Assembly (NCBI RefSeq): GCF_056746865.1
Contig: NZ_CM163382.1
Direction: 5' to 3' (one strand)
Length of the DNA: 64,000 nt
A model generated the notes under the pieces. The model was not told the DNA's origin. It did not search any database and was given only the letters and a program-made list of their open reading frames with translations. Of this stretch, positions 2,321-48,509 are shown one piece after another (position 1 is the stretch's first letter; each line of letters begins with the position of its first letter). Both the position numbers and the translations under genes were made by a program.

Positions 2321-2331
2321 GTTGTTCCTGG

Positions 2332-6173: not shown

Positions 6174-6178
6174 ACCGA

Positions 6179-17329: not shown

Positions 17330-18871
17330 ATGCTTAAAAGACGTGATGCTTTTTTAAAGAAAAGCGCGCTGGCAGTGAGTGTGGCCCTGCTGCTCTCGGC
17401 TCAGGCTCAGGCTGTTTTGACAGGGCCTGTTGATGGTAATTCTTCCAGCTTACTGATTGGAGAAAACTCTTTTATTACGAATTTAACTGGTACAGTTAAT
17501 AACACTTTCCTTTTGGGAGGTGGCGCTTTTAACCTGGATTCACCAGGAAGTCTTCAGTTTGGCTCTTTTTCGGAAGTGTATAATTCTCCACACAGTGTCA
17601 CCCTGGGAAGGGATGCCGGTCAGGCTGAGTCAAAATATGGTGTTGCCATAGGTAAGAGCGCTGAGGTATTTAATTCACAGCATAGTGTTGCTATTGGGGG
17701 ATGGGCTGGAATAGAAAATTCTTCAGGCTCTGTAGCTCTGGGCCATGGCTCACAGGTGTCGGGAGAAAATAACGTGGTATCTGTTGGTGCCGGGCCTGAG
17801 GGATATGGAAAGAGTGTCAAAGGAGCACCGGAAACCCGCCGGATTATAAATGTGTCTGATGGTATCAATAACACAGATGCAGCGACGGTAGGGCAACTGA
17901 ATGAACGATTTGATGATGCACAGGTCTTTTTGTTGCAGACGAATGAAAGAATTGACGAGACAGATAAACGTCTTTCAACAGTTCATGCTGAACTCAGCAG
18001 GGATATTATTGCAGGCACATCGGCAGCGGTGACGTATACAGATGTAACAGCGCTTGCACTTCAGGATGAGATAAAGGATGGGACGAACAAAGTACGTGAT
18101 GAGTTGAAATCACAGGGAGACAGTCTGCGTGGTGAGATAGGCGGTGTATACAGAGATGCCCGTGCTCATACTGACAGTCAGGTCACAGCAGTACGTGATG
18201 AACTGAAGGCAGAGGGAGACAGTCTGCGCGGTGAGATAGGCGGTGTATACAGAGATGCCCGTGCTCATACTGACAGTCAGGTCACAGCAGTACGTGATGA
18301 ACTCAGCAGGGATATTATTGCAGGCACATCGGCAGCGGTGGCGTATACGGATGCATCTTCTCTTGCTCTTCAGGATGAAATAAAAGAAAAAGCGGATGAA
18401 ACAGTTCAGGTTTCCCGGGCTTATACAGATAAAAGTGTACGGGATGCCCGTAAAGAAGCGAAAAGCCAGGCAGAACATCTCAGCGATGTGCTTGTGAAGA
18501 ACAGGGCGCAGACGGATGCAGCAATAGCCTCAAATACAGCAGCGATAAGGAATAACAGTCATCGTCTGGATTTGACGGAAGCCTGGCAGAAGATGGCGAC
18601 AGAGAGAATGAATAATATGCAGGAGCAGATTAAAGAGAACCGGAAGGAGTTAAGGGAGAGTGCAGCCCAGAGCGCGGCACTGGCCGGTCTTTTCCAGCCA
18701 TACAGTGTTGGAAAATTTAACGCGACAGCAGCCGTTGGTGGTTACCGTGATGAGCAGGCCATTGCGGTGGGCGTGGGCTACCGTTTCACAGAGAATGTGG
18801 CAGGAAAAGTTGCAGTTGCTGCAGGTGGGTCATCCGCATCGTGGAATGCTGGTGTGAATTTTGAGTTCTGA
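17330..18871 (+). CDS. Trimeric autotransporter adhesin, YadA-like (possibly Eib/Saa-like), 513 aa
   Basis: Signal peptide ([28 protein letters not shown]), head repeats (GVAIG, SVAIGG, SVALGH), neck motif [11 protein letters not shown], coiled-coil stalk with repeats, C-terminal anchor ending NAGVNFEF. Confidence 0.8.
18092..18289 (+). repeat. Two near-identical 99-bp tandem repeats within the adhesin stalk (33-aa units), plus a third partial unit
   Basis: Units start at 18092 and 18191 and differ at only a few positions; a further roughly 45-bp direct repeat at 17984-18036 and 18296-18348. Confidence 0.85.
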
Positions 18872-18892
18872 CAGGTCAGGATTTAGATATCT

Positions 18893-20265
18893 GTCCCGGG
18901 GGGAGTCCCCATAAGCGCTAACTTAAGGGTTGTGGTATTACGCCTGATATGATTTAACGTGCCGATGAATTACTCTCACGATAACTGGTCAGCAATTCTG
19001 GCCCATATTGGTAAGCCCGAAGAACTGGATACTTCGGCACGTAATGCCGGGGCTCTAACCCGCCGCCGCGAAATTCGTGATGCTGCAACTCTGCTACGTC
19101 TGGGGCTGGCTTACGGCCCCGGGGGGATGTCATTACGTGAAGTCACTGCATGGGCTCAGCTCCATGACGTTGCAACATTATCTGACGTGGCTCTCCTGAA
19201 GCGGCTGCGGAATGCCGCCGACTGGTTTGGCATACTTGCCGCACAAACACTTGCTGTACGCGCCGCAGTTACGGGTTGTACAAGCGGAAAGAGATTGCGT
19301 CTTGTCGATGGAACAGCAATCAGTGCGCCCGGGGGCGGCAGCGCTGAATGGCGACTACATATGGGATATGATCCTCATACCTGTCAGTTCACTGATTTTG
19401 AGCTAACCGACAGCAGAGACGCTGAACGGCTGGACCGATTTGCGCAAACGGCAGACGAGATACGCATTGCTGACCGGGGATTCGGTTCGCGTCCCGAATG
19501 TATCCGCTCACTTGCTTTTGGAGAAGCTGATTATATCGTCCGGGTTCACTGGCGAGGATTGCGCTGGTTAACTGCAGAAGGAATGCGCTTTGACATGATG
19601 GGTTTTCTGCGCGGGCTGGATTGCGGTAAGAACGGTGAAACCACTGTAATGATAGGCAATTCAGGTAATAAAAAAGCCGGAGCTCCTTTTCCGGCACGTC
19701 TCATTGCCGTATCACTTCCTCCCGAAAAAGCATTAATCAGTAAAACCCGACTGCTCAGCGAGAATCGTCGAAAAGGACGAGTAGTTCAGGCGGAAACGCT
19801 GGAAGCAGCGGGCCATGTGCTATTGCTAACATCATTACCGGAAGATGAATATTCAGCAGAGCAAGTGGCTGATTGTTACCGTCTGCGATGGCAAATTGAA
19901 CTGGCTTTTAAGCGGCTCAAAAGTTTGCTGCACCTGGATGCTTTGCGTGCAAAGGAACCTGAACTCGCGAAAGCGTGGATATTTGCTAATCTACTCGCCG
20001 CATTTTTAATTGACGACATAATCCAGCCATCGCTGGATTTCCCCCCCAGAAGTGCCGGATCCGAAAAGAAGAACTAACTCGTTGTGGAGAATAACAAAAA
20101 TGGTCATCTGGAGCTTACAGGTGGCCATTCGTGGGACAGTATCCCTGACAGCCTACAAAACGCAATTGAAGAACGCGAGGCATCGTCTTAACGAGGCACC
20201 GAGGCGTCGCATTCTTCAGATGGTTCAACCCTTAAGTTAGCGCTTATGGGGGAGTCCCCCGGGAT
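18893..20265 (+). mobile_element. IS4-family insertion sequence with about 38-bp terminal inverted repeats
   Basis: IRL cccggggggagtccccataagcgctaacttaagggttg (18893-) and IRR caacccttaagttagcgcttatgggggagtcccccggg (-20265); transposase ORF 18959-20077 has the IS4 YREK signature (Y-RL-R-WQI-E-LAFKRL-K). Confidence 0.7.
18959..20077 (+). CDS. IS4-family DDE transposase
   Basis: 372-aa ORF, YREK motif, bounded by the element IRs. Confidence 0.7.
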   Translation: MPMNYSHDNWSAILAHIGKPEELDTSARNAGALTRRREIRDAATLLRLGLAYGPGGMSLREVTAWAQLHDVATLSDVALLKRLRNAADWFGILAAQTLAVRAAVTGCTSGKRLRLVDGTAISAPGGGSAEWRLHMGYDPHTCQFTDFELTDSRDAERLDRFAQTADEIRIADRGFGSRPECIRSLAFGEADYIVRVHWRGLRWLTAEGMRFDMMGFLRGLDCGKNGETTVMIGNSGNKKAGAPFPARLIAVSLPPEKALISKTRLLSENRRKGRVVQAETLEAAGHVLLLTSLPEDEYSAEQVADCYRLRWQIELAFKRLKSLLHLDALRAKEPELAKAWIFANLLAAFLIDDIIQPSLDFPPRSAGSEKKN

Positions 20266-23101: not shown

Positions 23102-24119
23102 TCATGCCAGTGGACTCATGACCCTCTGCCTGAGTAGTTCAAATCCGGCTCGACCATACATCTGGCCTTTCAGCATTTTTAGTCGATTTACATGACTTTC
23201 GACAACCCCCATTATTCCAGCGACTGCTGATTGCCTCACATATAGCCGCAGCATCAGCTGCCATCCTTGCAGCCACGCGCCGAAGTTACCACTTTCTCGT
23301 TGCTCTTTTAACCACTCCCTCCATGGGGCCAGAAGTCCTCGCTCTGGAGGCCGGGTTGACATTTCAGGGAATGTTCCTGAACACACCCAGAGACTGACTG
23401 TCACACGTGATAAGCCTGTAATACGGGATATTTCCCCTGAACCCACATCCCTTGTTATGTAGTGCCATAACCTCTGTCCAACGCTGATGCCGTTTTTGGC
23501 GGGTTTGCTGTTTAAGGCGTTCCGGACGACGGAGCGATGCTACAGGCACAGACAGTACTGGCTTAGGTGATTTCTTTGGTGACAACCCACTGGCAACAAG
23601 ACGTATCAGAGGCATCTGTCTGTACATCATTCGTTCAGGCGCATCGCCAATATTTTTTAGCAGGTGCCATCGATCAGCTATCTGTCTGGCCTGAGGTGCA
23701 CCTTCACGTGCTGCTGTCGCATAGACTCCGCCACGGTCACGTGAGACAACCTGTATTTCCGGATATTTTCTGAACCAGGTCGCCAGCGTACTCTGATCGC
23801 AACCGGGAAGCAGGACGAGGGGACGGTGAGTATCAAGATTGACGATTAACGTGCCGTAATGGTGGCCCCGATGCCACGCCCACTCATCAATACCGACATG
23901 AGGCGCGCCCGACTGTTTCGTCTCCGGGGTATTAATAACCCTGCGAAGAAGAGTATCAGCACTGCAACGTAGCCCCACTGCCGTTGCTGCCTGTTTCCCG
24001 GCCTCACCTCCGGCTATTAATCCCGGTTGACGTTGTAAATTTTGTAACGCCTGTGAATACTGCTGATGTGAACTGTGAAGGGAGGCTGAGACTCGGCAAA
24101 ATTTTTCGTTAACAGGCAA
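23102..24119 (-). pseudogene. DDE transposase remnant, ISL3-like, in two overlapping frames
   Basis: Motifs DRWHLLKNIGDA and VNRLKMLKGQMYGRAGFELLRQRV; frameshift between ORFs 23102-23446 and 23364-24119. Confidence 0.45.
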
Positions 24120-24545
24120 GGGTTATGGCAGCACCAGAGTAAGATGCGTCTGGGCTGAGCAGGGTAAGTGCTGTATCTGGAGGCGATGGCATCTATGAAC
24201 TGAGTAGCTGTGCTTAAGGTATTCAACACATAGTGCTGTTTTGCATTTTCCGGGGAGATGGAGGGTTATATACCGTCAGAGCTAATAACTTCTTGACCGT
24301 ATTGCCATCAGCAAAGTAACCGTAGAAATCTCTTAAGTGAGTGTATTAAGTTACCCATAACTTAAAACGGCTTCACTGGTAAGCCTCATACATTTTCTTT
24401 CACTCAAGTTGTGGAAGCCCTCTTTCGTCGAACCGTTCGTTATAAATGCAAAAGATGTATGCTGACCCTCTCAAAGCCGAAATCATACAGAGTTTATGGA
24501 AAAGTGGTGAACCAGTCGCGTCGAAAGTAGATTGAGCTCATATCA

Positions 24546-25739
24546 TTACTTGCTTTTGCAGCAGCGCCAGATAAATACAGTCACCATGCTAAATAATACA
24601 GCGGCAAATAATGCCATCACAATCAGTGCTATTGCGACACCTGTTTTCGACACCAATGGTACCAACAACGCGCAAAGCCCATAGCCAAGTGTGTGACTGC
24701 AAGCGAGCCAGCCCGCGCCTGCGCCGTCGGCCAGCTTATCATTCAGTAAAAGTTGATAAGCGGGGGTTGCCAGAGCAGCTCCAAATGACAGCACTGCACA
24801 GCCTAGGTAAAACAACCATAGCTGTTCAGCGAGCATGATAGCCAGACCACTACTCATCAACACCCCGGCACTCAGGAGCAGAGCCACTGGAGTCAGGCGC
24901 TGTGGACGGAGTACCACGAACTGCGCGATAAGCGCAGCTATTGCGGACAGCCCCAACAACCACGCTACCTGTTGGCTAATAGTGGTGGTATCAGTGGCGA
25001 ACTGGCGAGTAAGGGCTGGAGAAAGTCCAAGCTGCATCATGCTCATTGCCGCAGCCAGTAACATTGCGCAAAGCAGATAAGGCAGGAAATCCCGCTTCAG
25101 GCTGACGCTCTTGCGCTCCGGTGTGGGCTGTGGTGGTGTGCCGGGCAACCGCAGAAGCATCACCAGTGCCAGCGCTGGCGCTGCCATCAGCATCCACACT
25201 GGCGCCAGAGGGTGAATGACCAACATTGCCGCCGCGCACAGCGGCCCGAATAGCCTGCCGCAGCTCAGGCCGGAGCTGATGGTTGCCAGAGCGGCCATGC
25301 GATTCCCATCTCCCGCTCTCTGCAATGCCCAGACCTGACAGGCTGGCACCATTGCTGACACGGTCAGACCGTAGACGATCCGGGCGATGATTAATATTCC
25401 CAACCCCACCGCTTTTGTTACGGCACCGGTAGCCATCAGCACGCTTCCCAGCCCAAGCAGGGTAAAGCTTACGCCATATCCTCCCAGAGCCCACAGCACC
25501 ACAGTCTTACTGCCAGTAAGGGAAATTTGCTTTCCCCACCATGGGGAAGATGGCAGAAACAGCATTGAGCCCAGCATCAGCAGGGCAGCCCATACAGACA
25601 GACTCAGATTTGTCTGTATGACCAGAACAGGGAGTACAACCAGCAGACCGTTCTGTCCGATACCGAGAAGACCGGCACTGAACGCCAGTGGCCAGCAGGA
25701 CAGGGTTTTTTGGGGCGTATCTTCGATCTTAGATGACAT
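24546..25739 (-). CDS. shiF: MFS transporter ShiF (aerobactin-locus associated)
   Basis: 397-aa multi-TM ORF divergently placed upstream of iucA, as in known aerobactin loci. Confidence 0.8.
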   Translation of the reverse strand: MSSKIEDTPQKTLSCWPLAFSAGLLGIGQNGLLVVLPVLVIQTNLSLSVWAALLMLGSMLFLPSSPWWGKQISLTGSKTVVLWALGGYGVSFTLLGLGSVLMATGAVTKAVGLGILIIARIVYGLTVSAMVPACQVWALQRAGDGNRMAALATISSGLSCGRLFGPLCAAAMLVIHPLAPVWMLMAAPALALVMLLRLPGTPPQPTPERKSVSLKRDFLPYLLCAMLLAAAMSMMQLGLSPALTRQFATDTTTISQQVAWLLGLSAIAALIAQFVVLRPQRLTPVALLLSAGVLMSSGLAIMLAEQLWLFYLGCAVLSFGAALATPAYQLLLNDKLADGAGAGWLACSHTLGYGLCALLVPLVSKTGVAIALIVMALFAAVLFSMVTVFIWRCCKSK

Positions 25740-25813
25740 TGTAATGTTTCAACACCATGTATTAATTGTGTTTATTTGTAAAATTAATTTTTCTGACAAT
25801 AACATTTCTCATT

Positions 25814-25832
25814 GATAATGATAATCATTATT
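25814..25832 (+). promoter_or_regulatory. Fur box in the iucA promoter
   Basis: GATAATGATAATCATTATT matches the Fur consensus GATAATGATAATCATTATC at 18 of 19 positions, about 40 bp upstream of iucA. Confidence 0.85.
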
Positions 25833-25874
25833 GACATAATTGTTATTATTTTACTGTGTAGGAGCTGTTTGATT

Positions 25875-27599
25875 ATGATCCTGCCCTCTGAAAAATCCGC
25901 CACAGATGTGGCTGCGCAGTGCTTCCTGAATGCCTTGATTCGTGAAACCAAAGACTGGCAACTGGCGGAATACCCGCCAGACGAATTGATTATCCCGCTG
26001 GACGAACAGAAGTCGCTCCATTTCAGAGTGGCTTATTTCTCCCCAACCCAGCATCACTGCTTTGCATTTCCTGCTCATCTGGTCACGGCATCAGGCAGTT
26101 ATCCTGTCGATTTTACCACTCTCTCCCGGCTTATTATTGACAAGCTCCGGCATCAACTTTTTCTGCCAGTTCCCCTCTGCGAAACTTTCCACCAACGCGT
26201 GCTGGAAAGCTACGCCCATACGCAACAGACAATTGATGCCCGCCATGACTGGGCCATCCTGCGTGAGAAAGCGTTGAATTTTGGCGAGGCTGAGCAGGCA
26301 CTGCTGACAGGACACGCTTTCCACCCTGCACCTAAGTCTCATGAACCGTTTAACCGCCAGGAAGCTGAACGATACCTGCCTGACATGGCACCTCACTTCC
26401 CGCTGCGGTGGTTTTCGGTGGATAAAACGCAAATCGCTGGTGAAAGTCTGCATCTTAACCTTCAACAGCGGTTGACGCGATTTGCCGCAGAAAATGCGCC
26501 CCAGTTACTCAACGAATTAAGTGACAATCAATGGCTGTTCCCGCTGCACCCGTGGCAGGGAGAATATCTTTTGCAGCAGGTGTGGTGCCAGGCACTTTTT
26601 GCTAAAGGACTTATCAGAGACTTAGGCGAGGCCGGCACGTCGTGGCTGCCGACCACCTCTTCCCGCTCCCTCTACTGTGCTACCAGCCGCGATATGATCA
26701 AGTTCTCCCTGAGCGTTCGGCTGACCAACTCCGTCCGTACTCTGTCTGTGAAAGAGGTGGAGCGAGGAATGCGCCTGGCACGTCTGGCGCAAACCGACGG
26801 CTGGCAGATGCTACAGGCCCGCTTCCCTACTTTCCGGGTAATGCAGGAGGACGGCTGGGCCGGGCTGCGCGATCTTAACGGCAACATCATGCAGGAAAGT
26901 TTGTTTTCCCTGCGTGAAAACCTGCTGCTGGAGCAGCCGCAAAGCCAGACCAACGTTCTGGTTTCCCTGACTCAGGCCGCACCGGATGGCGGTGATTCGC
27001 TGCTGGTTTCGGCGGTAAAACGCCTGAGCGATCGCCTCGGTATCACTGTGCAACAGGCCGCCCACGCATGGGTCGATGCTTACTGTCAGCAGGTGCTGAA
27101 GCCTCTGTTTACGGCTGAAGCGGATTACGGCCTGGTGCTGCTGGCGCATCAGCAAAATATTCTTGTGCAGATGCTTGGGGATCTGCCGGTCGGATTTATT
27201 TACCGTGACTGCCAGGGCAGCGCGTTTATGCCTCACGCGACAGAGTGGCTCGATACCATTGACGAGGCGCAGGCGGAAAATATTTTCACCCGTGAGCAGT
27301 TGCTGCGCTATTTCCCTTATTACCTGCTGGTTAACTCCACTTTTGCCGTAACTGCTGCGCTGGGTGCTGCCGGGCTGGACAGCGAAGCGAATCTGATGGC
27401 TCGTGTACGAACATTGCTGGCTGAAGTGCGTGACCAGGTGACTCATAAAACCTGTCTCAACTATGTTCTGGAAAGTCCGTACTGGAACGTAAAAGGTAAC
27501 TTTTTCTGTTATCTGAACGATCATAACGAGAACACCATCGTTGACCCTTCGGTGATCTATTTTGATTTCGCTAACCCGCTGCAGGCTCAGGAGGTCTGA
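25875..27599 (+). CDS. iucA: Aerobactin synthetase IucA
   Basis: IucA/IucC-family protein; start at ATG 25875 with RBS ggag (the upstream in-frame extension is AT-rich leader). Confidence 0.9.
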   Translation: MILPSEKSATDVAAQCFLNALIRETKDWQLAEYPPDELIIPLDEQKSLHFRVAYFSPTQHHCFAFPAHLVTASGSYPVDFTTLSRLIIDKLRHQLFLPVPLCETFHQRVLESYAHTQQTIDARHDWAILREKALNFGEAEQALLTGHAFHPAPKSHEPFNRQEAERYLPDMAPHFPLRWFSVDKTQIAGESLHLNLQQRLTRFAAENAPQLLNELSDNQWLFPLHPWQGEYLLQQVWCQALFAKGLIRDLGEAGTSWLPTTSSRSLYCATSRDMIKFSLSVRLTNSVRTLSVKEVERGMRLARLAQTDGWQMLQARFPTFRVMQEDGWAGLRDLNGNIMQESLFSLRENLLLEQPQSQTNVLVSLTQAAPDGGDSLLVSAVKRLSDRLGITVQQAAHAWVDAYCQQVLKPLFTAEADYGLVLLAHQQNILVQMLGDLPVGFIYRDCQGSAFMPHATEWLDTIDEAQAENIFTREQLLRYFPYYLLVNSTFAVTAALGAAGLDSEANLMARVRTLLAEVRDQVTHKTCLNYVLESPYWNVKGNFFCYLNDHNENTIVDPSVIYFDFANPLQAQEV

Positions 27600-28547
27600 A
27601 TGTCTGGGGCAAACATTGTTCACAGCGGATATGGACTGCGCTGTGAAAAACTCGACAAGCCTCTGAATCTTGGCTGGGGGCTGGACAATAGCGCGGTGTT
27701 GCACTGGCCCGGGGAGCTGCCAACAGGATGGCTGTGCGACGCGCTGGATCAGATATTTATCGCCGCACCACAACTTTCAGCAGTGGTTCTTCCCTGGTCC
27801 GAATGGTGTGAGGAGCCACAGGCGCTGACGCTTTTCGGACAGGTACAAAGCGACATTATCCATCGTTCCGCTTTCTGGCAGTTACCGTTATGGCTGAGTT
27901 CTCCGGCAAACCGGGCCTCCGGTGAAATGGTTTTTGATGCAGAGCGTGAGATTTATTTCCCGCAGCGCCCCCCCCGTCCGCAGGGTGAAGTTTATCGTCG
28001 TTACGATCCACGCATTCGCAGGATGCTGAGTTTCCGCATTGCCGATCCCGTTTCTGATGCAGAACGTTTCACTCGCTGGATGAACGATCCGCGCGTTGAG
28101 TATTTCTGGGAGCAAAGTGGCTCACTGGAGGTACAGATCGCCTATCTGGAACGCCAGCTCACCAGTAAACATGCATTCCCGCTGATTGGTTGTTTCGACG
28201 ATCGGCCGTTCAGTTATTTCGAAATCTACTGGGCGGCGGAAGACCGCATTGGTCGCCACTATTCGTGGCAGCCCTTTGACCGTGGCCTGCATCTGCTGGT
28301 TGGTGAACAGCAATGGCGCGGAGCCCACTATGTGCAAAGCTGGCTGCGCGGGGTGACACATTACCTGCTGCTGAATGAGCCACGTACGCAGCGCACAGTA
28401 CTGGAGCCACGCACCGATAACCAGCGCCTGTTCCGCCATCTTGAGCCTGCGGGATACCGGACAATTAAAGAGTTCGACTTCCCACATAAACGCTCGCGCA
28501 TGGTGATGGCGGATCGTCATCACTTCTTCACGGAGGTCGGTCTGTAA
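27600..28547 (+). CDS. iucB: N6-hydroxylysine acetyltransferase IucB
   Basis: 315-aa ORF in canonical operon position. Confidence 0.9.
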   Translation: MSGANIVHSGYGLRCEKLDKPLNLGWGLDNSAVLHWPGELPTGWLCDALDQIFIAAPQLSAVVLPWSEWCEEPQALTLFGQVQSDIIHRSAFWQLPLWLSSPANRASGEMVFDAEREIYFPQRPPRPQGEVYRRYDPRIRRMLSFRIADPVSDAERFTRWMNDPRVEYFWEQSGSLEVQIAYLERQLTSKHAFPLIGCFDDRPFSYFEIYWAAEDRIGRHYSWQPFDRGLHLLVGEQQWRGAHYVQSWLRGVTHYLLLNEPRTQRTVLEPRTDNQRLFRHLEPAGYRTIKEFDFPHKRSRMVMADRHHFFTEVGL

Positions 28548-30289
28548 TGAATCACAAAGACTGGGATTTGGTCAACCGCCGCTTGGTGGCAAAAATGTTG
28601 TCTGAGCTGGAGTATGAGCAGGTTTTCCACGCGGAATCTCAGGGCGATGACCGCTACTGCATTAACCTGCCGGGAGCACAATGGCGCTTCATCGCTGAAC
28701 GTGGTATCTGGGGCTGGCTCTGGATTGATGCTCAAACTCTGCGCTGCGCGGACGAGCCAGTACTGGCTCAGACGCTGCTGATGCAGCTAAAGCAGGTACT
28801 GTCAATGAGCGATGCAACCGTTGCTGAGCATATGCAGGATTTGTATTCCACGCTGCTGGGCGACCTGCAACTGCTGAAAGCCCGTCGCGGGCTGAGCGCC
28901 AGTGACCTGATTAATCTTAGTGCCGACCGCCTGCAATGCCTGCTGAGCGGTCATCCTAAATTCGTTTTTAATAAAGGTCGCCGTGGCTGGGGTAAAGAGG
29001 CGCTGGAACGATATGCGCCAGAGTATGCCAACACCTTTAGACTGCACTGGCTGGCGGTAAAACGTGAACATATGATCTGGCGCTGTGATAACGAGATGGA
29101 TATTCATCAGTTGTTGACGGCCGCAATGGATCCGCAGGAGTTTGCCCGCTTCAGTCAGGTCTGGCAGGAAAACGGACTGGATCATAACTGGCTGCCGCTG
29201 CCTGTACATCCGTGGCAGTGGCAGCAAAAAATCGCCACCGACTTCATCGCTGATTTTGCCGAAGGCAGGATGGTGTCTCTCGGCGAGTTTGGCGACCAGT
29301 GGCTCGCCCAGCAGTCGCTGCGTACCCTGACCAACGCCAGTCGCCGGGGTGGGCTGGATATCAAGCTGCCGCTGACCATCTACAACACCTCATGCTACCG
29401 GGGGATTCCTGGCAGATACATCGCTGCCGGACCACTGGCTTCACGCTGGCTACAACAGGTTTTTGCGACCGACGCTACCCTGGTGCAAAGCGGTGCAGTG
29501 ATCCTTGGTGAACCGGCTGCAGGCTATGTCTCCCATGAAGGCTATGCCGCGCTTGCCCGGGCTCCCTATCGCTACCAGGAAATGCTTGGTGTTATCTGGC
29601 GGGAGAATCCGTGCCGCTGGCTGAAACCGGATGAAAGTCCGGTTCTGATGGCAACACTGATGGAGTGCGACGAAAACGATCAGCCGCTGGCAGGCGCATA
29701 TATAGACCGCTCCGGGCTGGACGCTGAAACCTGGCTTACGCAACTGTTCCGGGTGGTCGTGGTTCCTCTGTATCACCTGCTTTGCCGCTACGGTGTCGCG
29801 CTTATTGCACATGGACAAAATATAACGCTCGCCATGAAAAAGGGGGTTCCACAGCGTGTTCTGCTGAAAGACTTCCAGGGCGATATGCGGCTGGTGAAAG
29901 AAGAGTTCCCCGAAATGGACTCTTTGCCTCAGGAGGTTCGTGATGTTACATCCCGCCTGAGTGCGGACTACTTAATCCATGATTTGCAGACGGGTCACTT
30001 CGTGACAGTACTGCGTTTTATTTCGCCACTGATGGTTCGTCTTGGCGTACCTGAACGGCGATTTTATCAACTGCTGGCAGCAGTGTTGAGTGATTACATG
30101 AAAAAACATCCACAAATGTCAGAGCGTTTTGCGCTTTTCTCACTTTTCAGGCCACAAATCATTCGCGTGGTGCTGAACCCGGTAAAACTGACCTGGCCTG
30201 ATCTGGATGGCGGCAGCCGCATGCTGCCGAATTACCTTGAGGATCTGCAAAATCCGCTGTGGCTGGTAACTCAGGAATATGAATCATGA
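28547..30289 (+). CDS. iucC: Aerobactin synthetase IucC
   Basis: 580-aa IucA/IucC-family ORF; overlapping start/stop with neighbours. Confidence 0.9.
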   Translation: MNHKDWDLVNRRLVAKMLSELEYEQVFHAESQGDDRYCINLPGAQWRFIAERGIWGWLWIDAQTLRCADEPVLAQTLLMQLKQVLSMSDATVAEHMQDLYSTLLGDLQLLKARRGLSASDLINLSADRLQCLLSGHPKFVFNKGRRGWGKEALERYAPEYANTFRLHWLAVKREHMIWRCDNEMDIHQLLTAAMDPQEFARFSQVWQENGLDHNWLPLPVHPWQWQQKIATDFIADFAEGRMVSLGEFGDQWLAQQSLRTLTNASRRGGLDIKLPLTIYNTSCYRGIPGRYIAAGPLASRWLQQVFATDATLVQSGAVILGEPAAGYVSHEGYAALARAPYRYQEMLGVIWRENPCRWLKPDESPVLMATLMECDENDQPLAGAYIDRSGLDAETWLTQLFRVVVVPLYHLLCRYGVALIAHGQNITLAMKKGVPQRVLLKDFQGDMRLVKEEFPEMDSLPQEVRDVTSRLSADYLIHDLQTGHFVTVLRFISPLMVRLGVPERRFYQLLAAVLSDYMKKHPQMSERFALFSLFRPQIIRVVLNPVKLTWPDLDGGSRMLPNYLEDLQNPLWLVTQEYES

Positions 30290-31563
30290 AAAAAAGTGTC
30301 GATTTTATTGGTGTAGGGACAGGGCCATTTAATCTCAGCATTGCTGCGTTGTCACATCAGATCGAAGAACTGGACTGTCTCTTCTTTGATGAACATCCTC
30401 ATTTTTCCTGGCATCCGGGTATGCTGGTACCGGATTGTCATATGCAGACCGTCTTTCTGAAAGATCTGGTCAGTGCTGTTGCACCTACAAATCCCTACAG
30501 CTTTGTTAACTATCTGGTGAAGCACAAAAAGTTCTATCGCTTCCTTACAAGCAGACTACGTACAGTATCCCGTGAAGAGTTTTCTGACTACCTCCGCTGG
30601 GCTGCTGAAGATATGAATAACCTGTATTTCAGTCATACCGTTGAAAACATTGATTTCGATAAAAAACGTCGATTGTTTCTGGTGCAAACCAGCCGGGGAG
30701 AATATTTTGCCCACAATATCTGCCTTGGTACAGGAAAACAACCTTATTTACCACCCTGTGTGAAGCATATGACACAATCCTGTTTCCATGCCAGTGAAAT
30801 GAATCTTCGTCGGCCGGACCTTAGTGAAAAACGGGTAACCGTGGTTGGTGGAGGACAGAGTGGTGCAGACCTGTTCCTTAATGCATTACGCGGGGAATGG
30901 GGAGAAGCGGCGGAAATAAACTGGATCTCCCGGCGGAATAATTTTAACGCACTGGATGAGGCTGCTTTTGCTGATGAGTATTTTACACCTGAATATATTT
31001 CAGGCTTCTCCGGACTGGAGGAAGATATTCGCCATCAGTTACTGGATGAGCAGAAAATGACATCGGATGGCATCACTGCCGATTCTTTACTGACCATTTA
31101 TCGTGAGTTGTACCACCGTTTTGAAGTTCTGAGAAAACCAAGAAATATCCGTCTGCTACCCAGCCGCTCGGTAACAACTCTGGAAAGTAGTGGTCCTGGC
31201 TGGAAGTTGCTGATGGAGCATCATCTGGATCAGGGCAGGGAGAGCCTGGAAAGTGATGTGGTGATTTTCGCCACAGGTTACCGTTCTGCGTTGCCACAAA
31301 TACTTCCCTCACTGATGCCGCTGATCACCATGCACGATAAGAACACCTTTAAAGTGCGTGATGACTTCACTCTGGAATGGAGTGGCCCGAAAGAGAACAA
31401 CATCTTCGTGGTCAACGCCAGTATGCAAACCCATGGCATCGCCGAACCTCAGCTCAGCCTGATGGCATGGAGATCTGCACGTATTCTTAATCGTGTAATG
31501 GGACGTGATTTATTCGATCTCAGTATGCCGCCCGCCCTGATTCAGTGGCGCAGCGGCACCTAG
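30286..31563 (+). CDS. iucD: L-lysine N6-monooxygenase IucD
   Basis: 425-aa ORF with N-terminal FAD-binding motif GVGTGPFN. Confidence 0.9.
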   Translation: MKKSVDFIGVGTGPFNLSIAALSHQIEELDCLFFDEHPHFSWHPGMLVPDCHMQTVFLKDLVSAVAPTNPYSFVNYLVKHKKFYRFLTSRLRTVSREEFSDYLRWAAEDMNNLYFSHTVENIDFDKKRRLFLVQTSRGEYFAHNICLGTGKQPYLPPCVKHMTQSCFHASEMNLRRPDLSEKRVTVVGGGQSGADLFLNALRGEWGEAAEINWISRRNNFNALDEAAFADEYFTPEYISGFSGLEEDIRHQLLDEQKMTSDGITADSLLTIYRELYHRFEVLRKPRNIRLLPSRSVTTLESSGPGWKLLMEHHLDQGRESLESDVVIFATGYRSALPQILPSLMPLITMHDKNTFKVRDDFTLEWSGPKENNIFVVNASMQTHGIAEPQLSLMAWRSARILNRVMGRDLFDLSMPPALIQWRSGT

Positions 31564-31644
31564 GGAAAACGCAGCCGGAGGCTGCTTCTTTAACTCGCTA
31601 CACAGCATCTTTGGGCTGATTTTTTCCGCCCGTGTGGAGGAATA

Positions 31645-33846
31645 ATGATGATAAGCAAAAAGTATACGCTTTGGGCTCTCAACCCACTGCTTCTTACCAT
31701 GATGGCGCCAGCAGTCGCTCAACAAACCGATGATGAAACGTTCGTGGTGTCTGCCAACCGCAGCAATCGCACCGTAGCGGAGATGGCACAAACCACCTGG
31801 GTTATCGAAAACGCCGAACTGGAACAGCAGATTCAGGGCGGCAAAGAGCTTAAGGACGCACTGGCTCAGCTGATCCCTGGCCTTGACGTCAGCAGCCGGA
31901 GCCGCACCAACTACGGTATGAATGTGCGTGGCCGCCCGCTGGTCGTGCTGGTTGACGGCGTGCGTCTCAACTCTTCACGTACCGACAGCCGACAACTGGA
32001 CTCTATAGATCCTTTTAATATCGACCATATTGAAGTGATCTCCGGTGCGACGTCCCTGTATGGCGGCGGCAGTACCGGTGGCCTGATCAACATCGTGAGC
32101 AAAAAAGGCCAGCCGGAAACCATGAAGGAGTTTGAGGCTGGCACCAAAAGTGGCTTTAGCAGCAGTAAAGATCACGATGAACGCATTGCCGGAGCTGTCT
32201 CCGGCGGAAATGAGCATATCTCCGGACGTCTTTCCGTGGCATATCAGAAATTTGGCGGCTGGTTTGACGGTAACGGCGATGCCACCCTGCTTGATAACAC
32301 CCAGACCGGCCTGCAGTACTCCGATCGGCTGGACATCATGGGAACTGGAACGTTGAACATCGATGAATCCCGGCAGCTTCAGTTGATCACACAGTACTAT
32401 AAAAGCCAGGGCGACGACGATTACGGGCTTAATCTCGGGAAAGGCTTCTCTGCCATCAGAGGGACCAGCACGCCCTTCGTCAGTAACGGGCTGAATTCCG
32501 ACCGTATTCCCGGCACTGAGCGGCATTTGATCAGCCTGCAGTACTCTGACAGCGCTTTCCTGGGACAGGAGCTGGTCGGTCAGGTTTACTACCGCGATGA
32601 GTCGTTGCGATTCTACCCGTTCCCGACGGTAAATGCGAACAAACAGGTGACGGCTTTCTCTTCGTCACAGCAGGACACCGACCAGTACGGCATGAAACTG
32701 ACTCTGAACAGCAAACCGATGGACGGCTGGCAAATCACCTGGGGGCTGGATGCTGATCATGAGCGCTTTACCTCCAACCAGATGTTCTTCGACCTGGCTC
32801 AGGCAAGCGCTTCCGGAGGGCTGAACAACAAGAAGATTTACACCACCGGGCGCTATCCGTCGTATGACATCACCAACCTGGCGGTCTTCCTGCAATCAGG
32901 CTATGACATCAATAATCTCTTTACCCTCAACGGTGGCGTACGCTATCAGTACACTGAAAACAAGATTGATGATTTCATCGGCTACGCGCAGCAACGGCAG
33001 ATTGCCGCCGGGAAGGCTATATCCGCCGACGCCATTCCTGGCGGCTCAGTCGATTACGACAACTTCCTGTTCAACGCTGGTCTGCTGATGCATATCACCG
33101 AACGCCAGCAGGCATGGCTCAACTTCTCCCAGGGCGTGGAGCTGCCGGACCCGGGTAAATACTATGGTCGCGGCATCTATGGTGCTGCAGTGAACGGCCA
33201 TCTTCCTCTAACAAAGAGTGTGAACGTCAGCGACAGCAAGCTGGAAGGCGTGAAAGTCGATTCTTATGAGCTGGGCTGGCGCTTTACTGGCAATAATCTG
33301 CGCACCCAAATCGCGGCCTACTATTCGATTTCTGATAAGAGCGTGGTGGCGAATAAAGATCTGACCATCAGTGTGGTGGACGACAAACGCCGTATTTACG
33401 GCGTGGAAGGTGCGGTGGACTACCTGATTCCTGATACTGACTGGAGTACCGGAGTGAACTTCAACGTGCTGAAAACTGAGTCGAAAGTGAACGGTACCTG
33501 GCAGAAATACGATGTGAAGACAGCAAGCCCATCAAAAGCGACAGCCTACATTGGCTGGGCACCGGACCCGTGGAGTCTGCGAGTGCAGAGCACCACCTCC
33601 TTTGACGTGAGCGACGCGCAGGGCTACAAGGTCGATGGCTATACCATCGTCGATTTGCTTGGCAGTTATCAGCTTCCGGTGGGTACACTCAGCTTCAGCA
33701 TTGAAAACCTCTTCGACCGTGACTACACCACTGTCTGGGGGCAGCGTGCGCCACTGTACTACAGCCCGGGTTACGGCCCTGCTTCACTGTACGGCTACAA
33801 AGGCAGGGGCCGCACCTTTGGTCTGAGTTACTCAGTATTATTCTGA
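31645..33846 (+). CDS. iutA: Ferric aerobactin TonB-dependent outer-membrane receptor IutA
   Basis: 733-aa ORF, signal peptide, TonB-dependent receptor features, C-terminal aromatic residue; operon context. Confidence 0.9.
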   Translation: MMISKKYTLWALNPLLLTMMAPAVAQQTDDETFVVSANRSNRTVAEMAQTTWVIENAELEQQIQGGKELKDALAQLIPGLDVSSRSRTNYGMNVRGRPLVVLVDGVRLNSSRTDSRQLDSIDPFNIDHIEVISGATSLYGGGSTGGLINIVSKKGQPETMKEFEAGTKSGFSSSKDHDERIAGAVSGGNEHISGRLSVAYQKFGGWFDGNGDATLLDNTQTGLQYSDRLDIMGTGTLNIDESRQLQLITQYYKSQGDDDYGLNLGKGFSAIRGTSTPFVSNGLNSDRIPGTERHLISLQYSDSAFLGQELVGQVYYRDESLRFYPFPTVNANKQVTAFSSSQQDTDQYGMKLTLNSKPMDGWQITWGLDADHERFTSNQMFFDLAQASASGGLNNKKIYTTGRYPSYDITNLAVFLQSGYDINNLFTLNGGVRYQYTENKIDDFIGYAQQRQIAAGKAISADAIPGGSVDYDNFLFNAGLLMHITERQQAWLNFSQGVELPDPGKYYGRGIYGAAVNGHLPLTKSVNVSDSKLEGVKVDSYELGWRFTGNNLRTQIAAYYSISDKSVVANKDLTISVVDDKRRIYGVEGAVDYLIPDTDWSTGVNFNVLKTESKVNGTWQKYDVKTASPSKATAYIGWAPDPWSLRVQSTTSFDVSDAQGYKVDGYTIVDLLGSYQLPVGTLSFSIENLFDRDYTTVWGQRAPLYYSPGYGPASLYGYKGRGRTFGLSYSVLF

Positions 33847-33910
33847 CAGGAATTCTTTGGAAACAAAGGTATGTTGATATAAGGGCCTTCCCTGATCATG
33901 GTGGGAAGGC

Positions 33911-35145
33911 TCAAAACGCCATATTCAGTTTCCCGTAGTGGAACATCACGCCCAGCTTAAAGCGTTCCCGATTGCGGTATCCCCTGGCTTTTATCCTCAG
34001 CAGCCTGAGCTTACTGTTAAGCGCCTCCGCGTTTCCGTTTGAGACACGGTGTCGCATGGCATTCAGGATCCCATACAGCCTTTTTCCTATCGTTTTCGTG
34101 GCGTTTTTCATCATAGTAATGTCACTGTTGGCCGCCAGAGCCAGCAATCTCTCCCACTCATTACGTCTTTCCTCACTTCATGGCCTGTTCCAGATATTCT
34201 TTGCCAGCTCTTTCAGCGCCCAGCACAGGCTTGTCAGCTTCATCTGTGCACGCAGCCATATCAGCTTTTCCTGCCTGGATTCGGTCATCCATTTATCGTT
34301 GTACTGCCACAGGAAGCGGGTCCCCTTTGCCTGACGCCGACTTTCAACAGGGAGGTGTGGATGTTCATCCTGACGGATTTTATCAACTACTTCACCAAGT
34401 TGCTTTGCTACATGGAAGCGGTCGAAGGCGATTTTCTCAACCGCACAGGGTAAGTGGATACGCGCTGCTCTTATACAGCCTGCATTCATGTCCATTGAGA
34501 GCGTTTTGATAGCCAGCAACTGCCCGTCAGTAAGCGTGCGAAGATAGCCGGCGAGGCTCTCTGTGCCACGATCGTCCGTTAAGGCCAGTGCACGACCATC
34601 GCGATCGGAGATCACAGTTATATAACAATGTCCTTTTTTAAAGGCGACCTCATCCACATTCATATGACGGGCGGATAATGGCTTTTTTATCCGGGCAAGA
34701 CCTCGCTTAACTGCCCGGGTCATAATGCCGTCAACCGCATTCCAGCTGAGCTTAAGTTGTTTCCTTACAGCATCAACAGTGCTGATTTTCAGCCATGAGA
34801 GAACGAGTCGAACAGCAGCGTATACCGCCTTCCGGGGCCAGCCCAGGGAACTAGCAACGTCTGGCAGCCATGCTCCGGGCACATAATGCGGGGCACATCG
34901 GCTTCGACAATAGTGGTGAACTGGCAGATATCAAGATGACGCCATTTACGATGACGGTGATCGTGAACAGAACAGGATTTACCGCAGGTCGGACAGGCTA
35001 ACCGGGCATTTTTAGCGATTCCAACTGTGACGGTAACAGAACCGGCGTTTTCATCGAGAGAAAGATATTTAACCTGCCATGGAGCGGTCAGGTTGATAAT
35101 ATGAGCGTAGAGGGACCTTTCGTCCATGGCGGTGACCTTTGGCAA
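33911..35145 (-). pseudogene. ISL3-family transposase, split into three frames by frameshifts
   Basis: N-terminal zinc-finger (CPTCGKSCSVHDHRHRKW...CPEHGC), core DRFHVAKQLGE, C-terminal GYRNRERFKLGVMFHYG; ORFs 34789-35145, 34178-34882 and 33911-34147. Confidence 0.65.
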
Positions 35146-35430: not shown

Positions 35431-36100
35431 GGTAGTGCTTCCAATCAGTAGAACATGTTCTTTTCAATGACGGAACCGATGACTTTTTCGTTGATTTTCA
35501 CGGAACGCGAGAAGCAGATTGTTTTACGTGCCAGCCGCTTGATGCGGGTGCGGAGGGGCAGGTTGTTAAGTTCAATAGGTTGCGTGAATATTTTACCGGT
35601 CAGGTATTTCTCCTTCGTCACTTCTCTGACGTTGCAGCCCCTGTCATTGCTGGTCACTATGCCGATATAGAACGAAGTCAACAGGGCTAACAGTTCCCGA
35701 CAGGTCTCATCATTCCGTGGCCCGAAAGAATAAGCCAACACACCGCAGTTTTAGTGTTGTAAGCAGACCAGTGTTGTTGCGCCTTGCTGCCAACGAAATT
35801 TAACTGCTCATCAAGTTTCAAAGATAAGGGCAACATCAGCGTGAACGACTGGCGTAGATGTTATCCGCCGGGGCGAAAACATTTTTAATGTCCGTATGAC
35901 GGTATTGATGCCGATTTTCAGTGTTCATGGGTATCACGGACACCTGCGCCGTTATGTGCCATTTCAACGATCTGCTCCTTAACGCCGGGTTTCCTGACTT
36001 CACCAAGAGTAAGTGAGCTGGAAAACATGTTTTACATGAGCGACAACGGAAACGCTCATCTCGGGAACGTGTTCTTAACGGTTAGACTGGCCCCCCTGAA
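35431..36100 (-). mobile_element. Second IS1-family copy (degraded; one terminus unclear)
   Basis: End sequence ggtagtgcttccaatcagtagaacat parallels the IS1 copy at 15189; InsB-like ORF 35445-35741 and degraded InsA-like reading near 35900-36060. Confidence 0.55.
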
Positions 36101-36435: not shown

Positions 36436-37314
36436 CTACAGATGTTGCTCTCTGGTTGTTGTACTAGTCGGGAGATCCTGTGGATCGACATTTTCCTTCG
36501 CGTGAGCATTGATGCTGGAAGCGGTAAACGTCAGGATGAATACAACCGTGAATAAGATAACAATCGTTGGTGCTGGTGCGCTGTCTATAAAAAAGGAGAG
36601 CCATACACCAGTCATTGAGACCATTACCGATATACCGAGCGCCAGCAGGAGCGCAATATGAAAGCGTTGCGTCAGGAGTACCGCAATGGCGCCAGGCGCA
36701 ATGAGCAGAGAAATGGAGAGAATGATACCTACCGCTTTCAGCGTCGCCACAATGGTCAGAGAGACCATGCACAGCAGCCCATAATGCAGCCATCTCGTAT
36801 GCAAACCGCTTACCTGCGCCTGTTGATAATCAAAGCTGAACAGCAAAAAATCCCGCCATTTTACGCTAATAACAAGTGTAACCAGCCCGGCAATAATCAC
36901 CGTCTGGATTATATCGCCGATGGTTACCCCGAGCATGTCGCCGAAAAGAATATGGTCAAGATGTACGTCGGGTTTGACTGCAATATACAAGATCAGACCT
37001 GCGGCAAACATGCCAGAAAAAACAATCCCCATCACTGTATCTTGCTTGATTCGGCTGTTGTCTTTCAGGTATCCCGTCGCCACCGCGCAGAATACTCCGG
37101 CGACGAATGCTCCTCCCGCCAGAGGAAAACCCAGTATCCACGCAAGCACGATACCAGGAAAAACCGCATGACTCATCGCGTCTCCCATCAGTGCCCAACC
37201 TTTCAGGACCAGAAAGACCGACAGCAGCGCACAGGGTATGGAAACTACCAGTGAAATCAGCAGTGCGTGACTCATAAAGGTGAACTGCAGTGGCTCCAGT
37301 AATAATGCCATCAT
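36436..37314 (-). CDS. sitD: Mn/Fe ABC transporter permease SitD
   Basis: Multi-TM permease, last gene of sitABCD. Confidence 0.85.
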   Translation of the reverse strand: MMALLLEPLQFTFMSHALLISLVVSIPCALLSVFLVLKGWALMGDAMSHAVFPGIVLAWILGFPLAGGAFVAGVFCAVATGYLKDNSRIKQDTVMGIVFSGMFAAGLILYIAVKPDVHLDHILFGDMLGVTIGDIIQTVIIAGLVTLVISVKWRDFLLFSFDYQQAQVSGLHTRWLHYGLLCMVSLTIVATLKAVGIILSISLLIAPGAIAVLLTQRFHIALLLALGISVMVSMTGVWLSFFIDSAPAPTIVILFTVVFILTFTASSINAHAKENVDPQDLPTSTTTREQHL

Positions 37315-38168
37315 GAGCGATCCTCCAGCACCTTATGCGCACGCTGACGATTTGCCAAAAGCCCATGGGTGGGTGCAAAGACAAATGCTAAAAGAAACAG
37401 CAGTGTCTGCGCCACCACGATGATTCCACCTGTCGCTCCGTCCAGAAAGTAACTGACCCACGCGCCGAGGAAACTGGTTACACTGCCAATAGTTACAGCA
37501 ATCACGAGCAGGCGGGGAAAACGATCGGTTAACAACCATGCTGTTGCGCCAGGGGTCACTACCAGACAGATCACCAGAAAAGCCCCAACCGTTTGCAATG
37601 CTGCAACGGTCGATACCGCCAGCAGTGTGAAGAAGAGGATTTTTAATCTTCCTGGATATAATCCAATAGCACGGGCGTGATTTTCGTCGAAAAAGGTCAC
37701 CATAAGATCTTTCCATTTGAAAAAGAGCACTATGACTGAGACAATGCCAATGATAGTGAGTTGCAGGATATCCGCCGGAGCGATTGCCAGAATATTGCCC
37801 AGGACGATGGTCTGAATATTTACGGATGTCGGGTTTAATGACACCATAAACAGCCCCAGGCCAAAAAAGGACGAGAAGATCAGGCCGATGATGGCATCTT
37901 CTTTTAAGCGAGTGCGTTGGTTAAGAAACAGCATGCTGCCCGCAGCCAGTCCACCGGAAAAGAAGGCCCCCAGAGAAAACGGAAGCCCCAGCATATATGC
38001 CCCCGCAACACCCGGGACGATAGAGTGCGACAGCGCATCGCCAATCAGCGACCAGCCTTTTAGCATCAGATAGCATGACAGGAAAGCGCAGAGACCGCCG
38101 ACCATCGCCGCGACCCACATCGCATTGAGCATATATTCATAGCTGAAGGGTTCCAGTAGCACGTTCAT
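37311..38168 (-). CDS. sitC: Mn/Fe ABC transporter permease SitC
   Basis: 285-aa multi-TM permease; overlapping stops/starts. Confidence 0.85.
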
Positions 38169-38992
38169 CTTTCTTCCCTCTGCACCGCTGATGGTCGATA
38201 AGCCACAAAGGGGCGTTCATCGTCAGTAATAATGCTTTCTTCCGAGCCTTTAAGTGTGACATGGCGTAGTACGCCGCTAAAAGCCAGCTCCAGGTTCTCG
38301 GCTGTAAAAGTGGTGTCTGTCGGCCCGCTTGCCAGGACGGTGCCTTTGACCATGACCGTATAATCGCAAAATGTCGTGACGGATCCGAGATTGTGCGTTG
38401 AGACAAGCATCGTTTTGCCTTCCGCGCGTAACTCCCTCAACAGGCTGATGATTTTGGCTTCGGTTTTCACATCAACGCCGGTAAAAGGTTCATCCAGCAG
38501 GATCACATCACCCTGCTGTGCAATCGCTCTCGCCAGAAAGACGCGTTTCTTTTGTCCACCGGAAAGCTCGCCGATTTGTCGATGGCGAAAATCTACCATA
38601 TCGACACGTTCCAGCGCATCGGTGACAACCTGACGATCCCTCTTATTGGCTATACGCAACATACCCATATGCCCATAGCGGCCCATCATCACCACATCTT
38701 CCACCAGTACAGGAAAGGACCAGTCCACTTCTTCTGACTGCGGGACGTAGGCAATCAGGTTTTTCTGCAGAGCCTGCCGCGTGGGAATACCCAGAACAGA
38801 TATCTTTCCGGTAGTCAGACGCACGAATCCCATAATCGCTTTAAATAACGTCGATTTTCCGGAACCGTTTACCCCAACCAGAGCGGCAATAGATCCGCCT
38901 GGTACTGTGAAGGATGCATCGCGCAGTGCTGTGTGCCCGTTACGCCAGGTGACAGTAACGCCATTAACGACAATACCCGCAGATTGCATCAT
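38165..38992 (-). CDS. sitB: Mn/Fe ABC transporter ATP-binding protein SitB
   Basis: Walker [10 protein letters not shown] and ABC signature LSGGQKKRV. Confidence 0.9.
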
Positions 38993-39906
38993 TACTTCTC
39001 CCTTTTCCCGGCTTTAATTCCCTGCACCAGCGTACTGGTAGTAACCTTCAGAAGGTCGATATACGTAGGTACCGGGCCGTTTTCTGTGCTCAGGGAATCG
39101 ACATAGAGCACACCGCCGTAGTGTGCGCCGGTTTCACGCGCAACCTGACGCGCTGGTTTATCGGAAACCGTACTCTCACTAAATACCGCTGGGATATTAT
39201 TTTTCTTCACTATATCAACCACTTTACGTACCTGCTGGGGTGTTCCTTGTTGATCGGCATTTATCGGCCACAGATAAAGCTCTTTTAGCCCCAAATCGCG
39301 TGCGAGATAAGAAAAAGCCCCTTCACTGGTGACCATCCATCTTTTATTCTCAGGGAGTTCAGCAATCTGCTTACGCAGGGGGGCAAGGGTTTGGGTAATC
39401 TTGGCTTTATAAGTATCGGCATTACGTTGGTATGTTTTTGCATTTGCCGGATCGTATTTTATCAACGCATCACGAATATTATCGACGTAAATCAAAGCAT
39501 TATCTGGTGACATCCAGGCATGAGGGTTAGGTTTTCCCTCGTAGGGGCCTTCGGTGATCCCTACTGGCGTCACACCCGAAGAGACAATCACTTCTGGAAC
39601 ACCATTGAGATGCTGGTAAAAGCGCTGGAACCACAATTCCAGATTCATTCCATTGGCGAGAATCAGTTGTGCCCCCTGCGCACGTTTAATATCGCCAGGG
39701 GTAGGCTGATACTCATGAATTTCCGCACCGGGCTTGGTTATGGATGAGACTTCTGCAACATCTCCAGCCACGTTTTTGGCCATATCTGCGATGATGGTAA
39801 ATGTTGTAATGACCTTGAATTTTTCAGTTGCACTCGCCTGAAATGCGATCGAGCAGGTGAGGGCGAGGAACCCCAAGAGCATGGTTAATTTTTTTATTGA
39901 GTGCAT
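38992..39906 (-). CDS. sitA: Mn/Fe ABC transporter periplasmic binding protein SitA
   Basis: 304-aa ORF with signal peptide; first gene of the operon. Confidence 0.9.
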
Positions 39907-39960: not shown

Positions 39961-39982
39961 TATAGCATAATCTATACAAATG

Positions 39983-40000
39983 CAAATGGTTATCATTAAT
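39983..40000 (-). promoter_or_regulatory. Fur-box-like sequence upstream of sitA
   Basis: AAATGGTTATCATTAATG has partial match to the Fur consensus; weaker than the iucA box. Confidence 0.4.
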
Positions 40001-41287: not shown

Positions 41288-41376
41288 GCCAGTTATTAAA
41301 ACCCCTTTTGATTTGTTAAAACACCTTGCGGTCTGGCAACTGCAAGTGTCAAACAAGAAATCAAAAGGGGGTCCCA

Positions 41377-48503: not shown

Positions 48504-48509
48504 GGTTCC

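Follow-up and report, generated by a model that had tools for sequence, protein, structure and literature searches.

The question raised by this locus is whether a complete set of aerobactin genes lying among broken insertion sequences (IS) still forms a working iron-uptake system, and what its intactness says about selection. The locus is found in a stretch of 64,000 nucleotides (nt) from Escherichia coli (contig NZ_CM163382.1, assembly GCF_056746865.1; hereafter the window, to whose positions all coordinates refer), and it consists of shiF and the divergently oriented genes iucA, iucB, iucC, iucD and iutA. Judged by its sequence, the locus belongs to the aerobactin lineage known from ColV plasmids, and it lies within a chromosomal E. 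coli island of mosaic make-up. We consider it very likely that it is a classical system of that lineage, situated next to cadC and repressed by Fur, in which the lysine monooxygenase IucD of 425 amino acids (aa) is functional. It adds no new biology, being a virulence-associated locus for iron uptake of the textbook kind that is already known.

The six open reading frames (ORFs) were read for a single terminal stop, and each of them is uninterrupted (Table 1). Their Pfam domains are spanned end to end by each of the six products. An initial annotation of this DNA had called shiF and iucABCD-iutA full length, which stands for the ORFs as such, although IucD has 425 aa compared with 444-445 aa in its orthologues. 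The genes iucA-iucB-iucC-iucD-iutA are collinear on one strand, and the coupled stops and starts that had been described are present from iucA to iucD: the TGA of iucA is immediately followed by the ATG of iucB, and the iucB/iucC and iucC/iucD junctions read TAATG and ATGA. The spacer between iucD and iutA is 81 nt long. The longest ORF for iucA opens at TTG 25812, and RefSeq places the start on identical DNA at ATG 25875, which is preceded by AGGAG. The proteins of 574 and 580 aa each match PF04183 and PF06276 over the whole profile, and IutA scores 625 bits against TIGR01783 (cut-off 223.5). Since the NCBIfam scan gave no equivalog-level match for IucA-D, with only sub-threshold matches to SbnC/SbnF, AAC(6') and histamine N-monooxygenase, the naming of these four proteins rests on Pfam and on the RefSeq annotation of identical DNA. 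ShiF is known as an auxiliary factor for aerobactin secretion (PMC6918656). An Rfam scan returned nothing within the aerobactin locus.

The control region between shiF and iucA is identical to that of the ColV plasmids pPK8275 and pCERC14. Its predicted Fur box, GATAATGATAATCATTATT, is the sole site in the 64 kb at three or fewer mismatches (0.02 expected), and it lies over the -35 and -10 elements of the predicted iucA promoter, as expected from the near-consensus Fur operator that had been noticed earlier. In pS88 and CFT073 the box is GATAATGAGAATCATTATT, with a match of 17/19 and a G, not a T, at box position 9; the T at this position is common to the window, pPK8275 and pCERC14. Chromatin immunoprecipitation sequencing of Fur in CFT073 showed that iucABCD-iutA, shiF, sitABCD and iha are direct targets (PMC7157518). 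In the window, weaker Fur-like boxes were found upstream of sitA and iha; chance would yield about 1.4 matches of at least 14/19 in the window, so that what speaks for these two boxes is only their position. Another Fur-like box (15/19) at 10134-10152, just downstream of a gene for a 376-aa hypothetical protein, was discarded, as there is no iron-related gene nearby and it is within the chance expectation.

The steps of the aerobactin pathway are established knowledge, and the products encoded here would be expected to follow them. IucD, using FAD, NADPH and O2, would hydroxylate L-lysine at N6, and IucB would acetylate the hydroxylated lysine. IucA would then join one N6-acetyl-N6-hydroxylysine to citrate and IucC the second one, while ShiF would boost export. 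IutA would take ferric aerobactin across the outer membrane, driven by TonB, and FhuBCD from the core genome would complete the import. When iron is plentiful, Fe2+-Fur bound at the 18/19 operator over the iucA -35/-10 elements would switch off both iucA and the divergent shiF.

The 3' end of iucD

The closest IucD orthologue clusters have 444-445 aa and end in a common conserved tail, SREKPQPEAASLTRYTASLG. In the DNA alignment, the 3' end of the gene reads GGCAGCCGG[G/A]AAAAACCGCAG in the Salmonella-type and CFT073-type loci and GGCACCTAGGGAAAA-CGCAG in the window. A few substitutions together with a net 1-nt deletion at codon ~424 lead to a TAG after codon 425 and to the loss of the 20-residue tail, the remnant of which can still be read out of frame downstream of the new stop. 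A hidden frameshift was what the initial annotation had named as grounds for giving up its reading; one is present at the iucD 3' end and had been missed, and we judge it to be harmless for the reasons given below. On identical DNA, RefSeq (with its PGAP pipeline) lists iucD as a 'frameshifted' pseudogene that covers window positions 30286-31619. The same flag is carried by 8 of the 8 such loci that were checked (XDL, PK8261, pPK8275, HM670, pS88, an ETEC4091 plasmid, 327_BP0021 and a NIST0056 plasmid), and iucD is annotated as intact in 4 of 4 loci checked that encode the 445-aa form (EC5654, RM9872, CFT073 and O104:H4).

The shortened gene is the common state. The iucD 3' end of the window was found in 1545 of the 1913 E. 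coli records that match the region (~80%), and the exact IucD protein is present on at least 1000 contigs. The plasmid pS88 has an iucD whose last 90 nt are identical to those of the window, with a 425-aa product, and it is likewise flagged as frameshifted. Strain S88 secretes aerobactin as detected by liquid chromatography with tandem mass spectrometry, and its pS88-cured derivative fails to cross-feed an indicator strain (PMC6918656). Since aerobactin-producing pS88 has the same 425-aa state, the length of 444-445 aa is not required for function. The IucD of pColV-K30 is presumably also ~425 aa long; pS88 was used here instead as the documented functional example.

The structural comparisons agree with a complete fold. 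Solved structures of N-hydroxylase homologues in the Protein Data Bank align to IucD residues 5-413 only. In the AlphaFold model of a 444-aa orthologue, the last helix spans residues 390-405, and residues 417-444 have a predicted confidence (pLDDT) of ~32 and are without secondary structure. The motifs GxGxGxxN (residues 9-16) and GGGQSG (188-193) of the FAD/NADPH fold are present in the translation. In addition, when the window protein was aligned with the representatives of 116 orthologue clusters, 18 of the 117 sequences ended three residues past the conserved WRS motif, the window allele being among them. A programmed frameshift that would restore the tail was rejected, as the sole slippery-looking heptamer (G GGA AAA) follows the in-frame TAG and none precedes the stop. 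By analogy with pS88, we take the 425-aa protein to be the normal working form of IucD in this lineage, with a disordered tail lost and the fold untouched.

The RefSeq label is thus misleading, because S88 makes aerobactin with this allele, the fold is complete, the tail is disordered, the allele is common and the ratio of non-synonymous to synonymous substitution rates (dN/dS) is low; it is a systematic artefact of comparison with 445-aa references and not a sign of decay. A literature search on iucD together with frameshift or pseudogene found no title or abstract that addresses this annotation problem. The practical point is one of annotation, since a common allele that supports aerobactin production in strain S88 carries a pseudogene label. 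In pangenome or virulence-gene surveys from which pseudogenes are discarded, iucD would be counted too rarely, and strains with this allele could be mistaken for aerobactin-negative ones.

Selection, decay and recent arrival

Compared with CFT073, dN/dS was 0.118 for iucA, 0.109 for iucB, 0.090 for iucC, 0.093 for iucD, 0.152 for iutA and 0.241 for shiF. The iucD value is on a par with those of iucA-C. The 9.3 kb contain 640 substitutions and only 3 gap openings; the two indels that were located in the alignment affect the 3' end of iucD and the spacer ahead of iutA, and the remaining ORFs are open. The initial annotation had proposed such a dN/dS comparison with the IS genes of the island, and it was carried out for the iuc genes (0.09-0.15 against CFT073), with two IS256-family remnants of the window compared by gap openings (5 per 104 mismatches, over 781 nt). 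From these alignments, long-term purifying selection on the locus is clear.

Several observations weigh against a functional locus as we read it. The FhuBCD and TonB partners lie outside the window, and the case for aerobactin production comes by analogy from the S88/pS88 allele and not from a strain with the exact sequence. The lost tail is conserved across Klebsiella-, Salmonella-, Enterobacter-, Citrobacter- and Pectobacterium-type orthologues, which makes some non-essential role of the tail possible. Moreover, the window IucD differs from that of pS88 at five residues, four of which are derived on the window branch, where iucD has undergone as many synonymous as non-synonymous changes (4 each). 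Two of the substitutions are unmatched among the 116 orthologue representatives: R143H (codon 30712-30714), where 94 have R, 22 have K and none has H, and G181E (codon 30826-30828), seven residues ahead of the NADPH-binding GGGQSG, where 107 have G, 4 D, 3 A, 2 N and none E. This sub-allele is rare, being found in 47 of 1854 E. coli records. Together with the RefSeq flag and with the existence of strains such as ED1a, which produces no aerobactin despite its iuc locus (PMC6918656), these points could be taken to mean that iucD is a true pseudogene, or a sub-allele crippled by R143H/G181E, and that no aerobactin is made, the locus serving at most a receptor-only 'cheater' that takes it up from neighbours through IutA. 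We regard this as improbable, as the frameshift is common to the aerobactin-making pS88, the entire fold of IucD is kept, and the exact protein occurs on many contigs. Both substitutions are semi-conservative in view of the K at 143 and the D at 181 that occur naturally in the orthologue sequences. In addition, iucA-C are intact and near-identical to plasmid copies, which is not what a long-term loss of the first step predicts. Loss of function in the window IucD is judged unlikely, and we give about as little credence to the idea that the sub-allele is catalytically impaired and that the ~47 complete genomes are non-producers keeping iutA for siderophore piracy. In a milder form of this idea, loss of the disordered tail throughout the ColV lineage would alter how IucD is regulated or how it associates with partners.

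A different doubt concerns what keeps a functional locus intact. More than 20 complete E. coli chromosomes, from isolates of humans, chickens/poultry, swine and a kite, agree with window positions 24000-34500 (10.5 kb) at 100.0% identity, XDL and NRZ14408 being among the strains with the exact locus. For iucA and iucB, the copy on a ColV plasmid does not differ from that of the window. The full identity of the 10.5 kb in many unrelated isolates means that the segment arrived recently and has had almost no time for decay; its intactness carries little information and gives no ground for concluding that selection continues in this genome. Of the earlier claim that an intact locus implies ongoing selection, long-term constraint on iucA-D and iutA is what stands, and the word 'ongoing' is not shown. 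It is a real possibility, though one to which we give well under even weight, that intactness reflects a recent horizontal arrival of a functional locus rather than selection in the lineage, each IS scar having formed in a single step while the island was being assembled. A plasmid-type operon in the chromosome fits the reported plasmid-chromosome exchanges of the aerobactin (aer) and sit loci, iuc occupying ~10 chromosomal sites and plasmid-type and chromosomal operons occasionally exchanging location (PMC10282060). Many of the IS fragments have been cut short (they are labelled 'partial in the middle of a contig') rather than altered by point mutations, and truncated IS copies arise in one step by the insertion of one element into another, not by slow erosion. 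What counts against recent arrival as the whole explanation is the strong purifying selection between lineages, and also the finding that aerobactin and sit rank with the loci whose association with extra-intestinal virulence is strongest and that they have been gained repeatedly, which was read by the authors as selection (PMC10282060). In addition, iuc loci of the 445-aa type have decayed in other backgrounds, as in O145 RM9872, where iucC is truncated ('ferric iron reductase, incomplete'), and in S1-CAM-02-A, where iucD has lost 16 nt near its 3' terminus; since decayed loci occur in these backgrounds, loss happens where the locus is unneeded.

Flanking elements and the rest of the island

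The elements on both sides of the aerobactin module had been described as pseudogenised, and this agrees with the coverage of the DDE domain in the two ISL3-family remnants (137/240 and 160/240; Table 1). The two ISL3 flanks have no repeat of 40 bp or longer between them, and blastn between the remnants also found nothing. Being unrelated at the DNA level, the ISL3 remnants do not form a matching pair around the module, and a composite transposon with matching DNA arms was ruled out. The arrangement on ColV plasmids, where the module is bracketed by IS1, was not seen either, because IS1 fragments are on one side only (35445-36057). The more distant surroundings contain an IS256-family gene with a frameshift, part of an integrase core and fragments of IS1, IS110, IS200 and IS256. 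On DNA that is 99.99% identical, RefSeq gives the labels frameshifted or partial to the remnants of IS256, the integrase core, ISL3 and IS1. The heavy IS decay reported before is thus real for the flanks and for many remnants, which are broken, but it does not extend to the transposase genes of an IS5-like element, IS630 and IS66, which are intact. The IS66 gene is held by a 2.45-kb insertion relative to strain EC6563 (58085-60537), which lies within an already decayed IS110/IS3 patch. Since this insertion interrupts a patch that had already decayed, IS elements have been active in the island in recent times and not only long ago.

Table 1. Positions of the genes, control elements and insertion sequences discussed in the text (window coordinates)
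Feature	Position	Strand	Description
IS5-like transposase gene	18959-20077		intact
ISL3-family transposase pseudogene, left flank	23102-24286	-	RefSeq 'frameshifted' (99.99%-identical DNA); DDE_Tnp_ISL3 1-137/240 in longest ORF
shiF	24546-25739	-	397 aa, uninterrupted; Pfam MFS_1; RefSeq 'MFS transporter' on identical DNA
shiF/iucA control region, divergent	25740-25874		135 bp; 7 differences from CFT073
Sigma-70 promoter-like site TTGATA-17-CATAAT	25812-25840	+	10/12, TG extended; best of the region; overlapped by Fur box
Fur box GATAATGATAATCATTATT	25814-25832	+	predicted; 18/19 match to 19-bp consensus
iucA	25875-27599	+	NRPS-independent siderophore (NIS) synthetase, 574 aa, intact; Pfam IucA_IucC + FhuF; RefSeq iucA
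iucB	27600-28547	+	N6-hydroxylysine acetyltransferase, 315 aa, intact; Pfam Acetyltransf_8 PF13523 1-145/145, E 7e-53
iucC	28547-30289	+	NIS synthetase, 580 aa, intact; Pfam IucA_IucC + FhuF
iucD	30286-31563	+	lysine N6-monooxygenase, 425 aa, ColV-type allele; Pfam Lys_Orn_oxgnase PF13434 2-338/339
Out-of-frame iucD tail remnant	31564-31619	+	-1 frame ending in QPEAASLTRYTASLG and stop; old TGA 31617-31619; now in iucD-iutA spacer
iutA	31645-33846	+	TonB-dependent ferric-aerobactin receptor, 733 aa, intact; PF07715 Plug + PF00593 TonB_dep_Rec_b-barrel
ISL3-family transposase pseudogene, right flank	33911-35127	-	RefSeq 'frameshifted; internal stop'; DDE 3-160/240 and Zn-ribbon in separate ORFs
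sitDCBA	36436-39906	-	iron/manganese ABC transporter; four intact coupled ORFs
Fur-like box, weak	39982-40000		14/19; 76-94 nt upstream of sitA
iha	50810-52897	-	siderophore receptor/adhesin, 695 aa, uninterrupted; divergent allele, dS 0.61 vs CFT073
Fur-like box	52947-52965		15/19; 50-68 nt upstream of iha
IS630 transposase gene	54651-55682		intact
IS66 tnpC	58123-59661		512-aa IS66-family transposase, intact

The sitABCD genes and the Iha-like receptor gene are intact, as the initial annotation had stated, with all ORFs uninterrupted. In related chromosomes, the left end of the window adjoins cadC, behind a decayed (frameshifted) integrase remnant. No complete genome in the collection has the whole 64 kb contiguous. 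The gene shiF was named in the Shigella islands SHI-2 and SHI-3, and SHI-3 has been reported at pheU, which in K-12 is a neighbour of cadC. A tRNA gene was found neither in the 64-kb window nor, in the related locus, on the cadC side; the island's other end lies beyond the window.

The left end of the island (514-8771) is a CP4-like accessory module with RelE/ParE-ParD, DUF4942, a CbtA/YeeU toxin-antitoxin pair, a RadC-like JAB protein, an antirestriction protein, DUF932 and a YeeP-like GTPase, whose genes are all intact according to the RefSeq annotation of the 99%-identical PK8261 locus. A YadA-like adhesin gene (17276-18871) follows, and then an intact IS5-like element at 18886-20248. The adhesin gene is 1443 nt long in XDL and 1542 nt in PK8261, which apparently reflects a change in the copy number of an internal repeat of ~114 nt. 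The intervals 43268-43792 and 46691-49484 hold an intact gene for the periplasmic Cu/Zn superoxide dismutase SodC, a gene for a SgcJ/EcaC-like protein of the SnoaL fold and decayed genes of an integrative and conjugative element (ICE), including a TraU/TIGR03756 fragment. Two Hfq-binding small RNAs gave full-length Rfam matches amid the IS remnants, namely STnc490 at 41246-41367 (+ strand, 129 bits) and isrN at 63277-63419 (- strand, 138 bits).

Relation to known aerobactin systems

In the Shigella islands SHI-2 and SHI-3, shiF is adjacent and divergent to iucA with a common control region (PMC6918656), as in the window; this likeness is drawn from the published description. The heavy IS content of these islands is also found in the window island, which adjoins cadC. 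Unlike SHI-2 and SHI-3, the window island has sitABCD, sodC, iha and ICE remnants too.

The Klebsiella- and Salmonella-type iuc loci, which encode a 444-aa IucD, have the same operon architecture as the window. Their tail is in frame, and the out-of-frame remnant in the window still spells the QPEAASLTRYTASLG of this type. For iucD, the DNA identity is 71-82% in 200-nt windows, and the protein identity of IucD is 79%. The locus in CFT073, on PAI-CFT073-pheV and of a type also found in O104:H4, is closer, with the same genes, order, coupling and place of the Fur box and a DNA identity of 92.9% over 9.3 kb. The CFT073 island also has iha and an ISL3 remnant. Its IucD is different in having 445 aa, with a tail ending in ALTHYTTNIQE, and is listed as intact by RefSeq; a 23-nt deletion puts iutA 5 nt past iucD, and IutA has 731 aa (dS 0.37 against the window). 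A mosaic signal was observed at 31483-31880, across the iucD 3' end and the iutA 5' end, where the window is 90-92% identical to the Salmonella type and 74-84% identical to CFT073, whereas outside this segment iucA-D are 92-98% identical to CFT073 and 71-93% identical to the Salmonella type.

The closest relatives are the ColV modules of the pColV-K30 type, of which pS88/pECOS88, pPK8275-180kb and pCERC14 were compared. Hundreds of ColV-type plasmids match the window at 98.7-98.9% identity, the compared modules without gaps, and the homology ends at 24538 and 33880. Near the first of these limits, the C-terminus of ShiF (24546-24575) ends in IWRCCKSK in the window and in IWHYRTIK in pS88 and CFT073; the last 5-6 residues are rewritten by substitutions clustered in ~15 nt with no change in length, a cluster which may represent micro-recombination at the module boundary. 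In the ColV modules, too, shiF is divergent from iucABCD-iutA, iucD encodes 425 aa and matches the window exactly at its 3' end, and IutA has 733 aa; the promoter region is also the same as in the window. The module of pS88 is 98.66% identical to that of the window, with zero gaps over 9343 bp, and it differs in the Fur box (17/19 compared with 18/19), in the five IucD residues and in the end of ShiF. The ColV modules are plasmid-borne and flanked by IS1 copies, whereas the window copy is chromosomal and flanked by ISL3 remnants.

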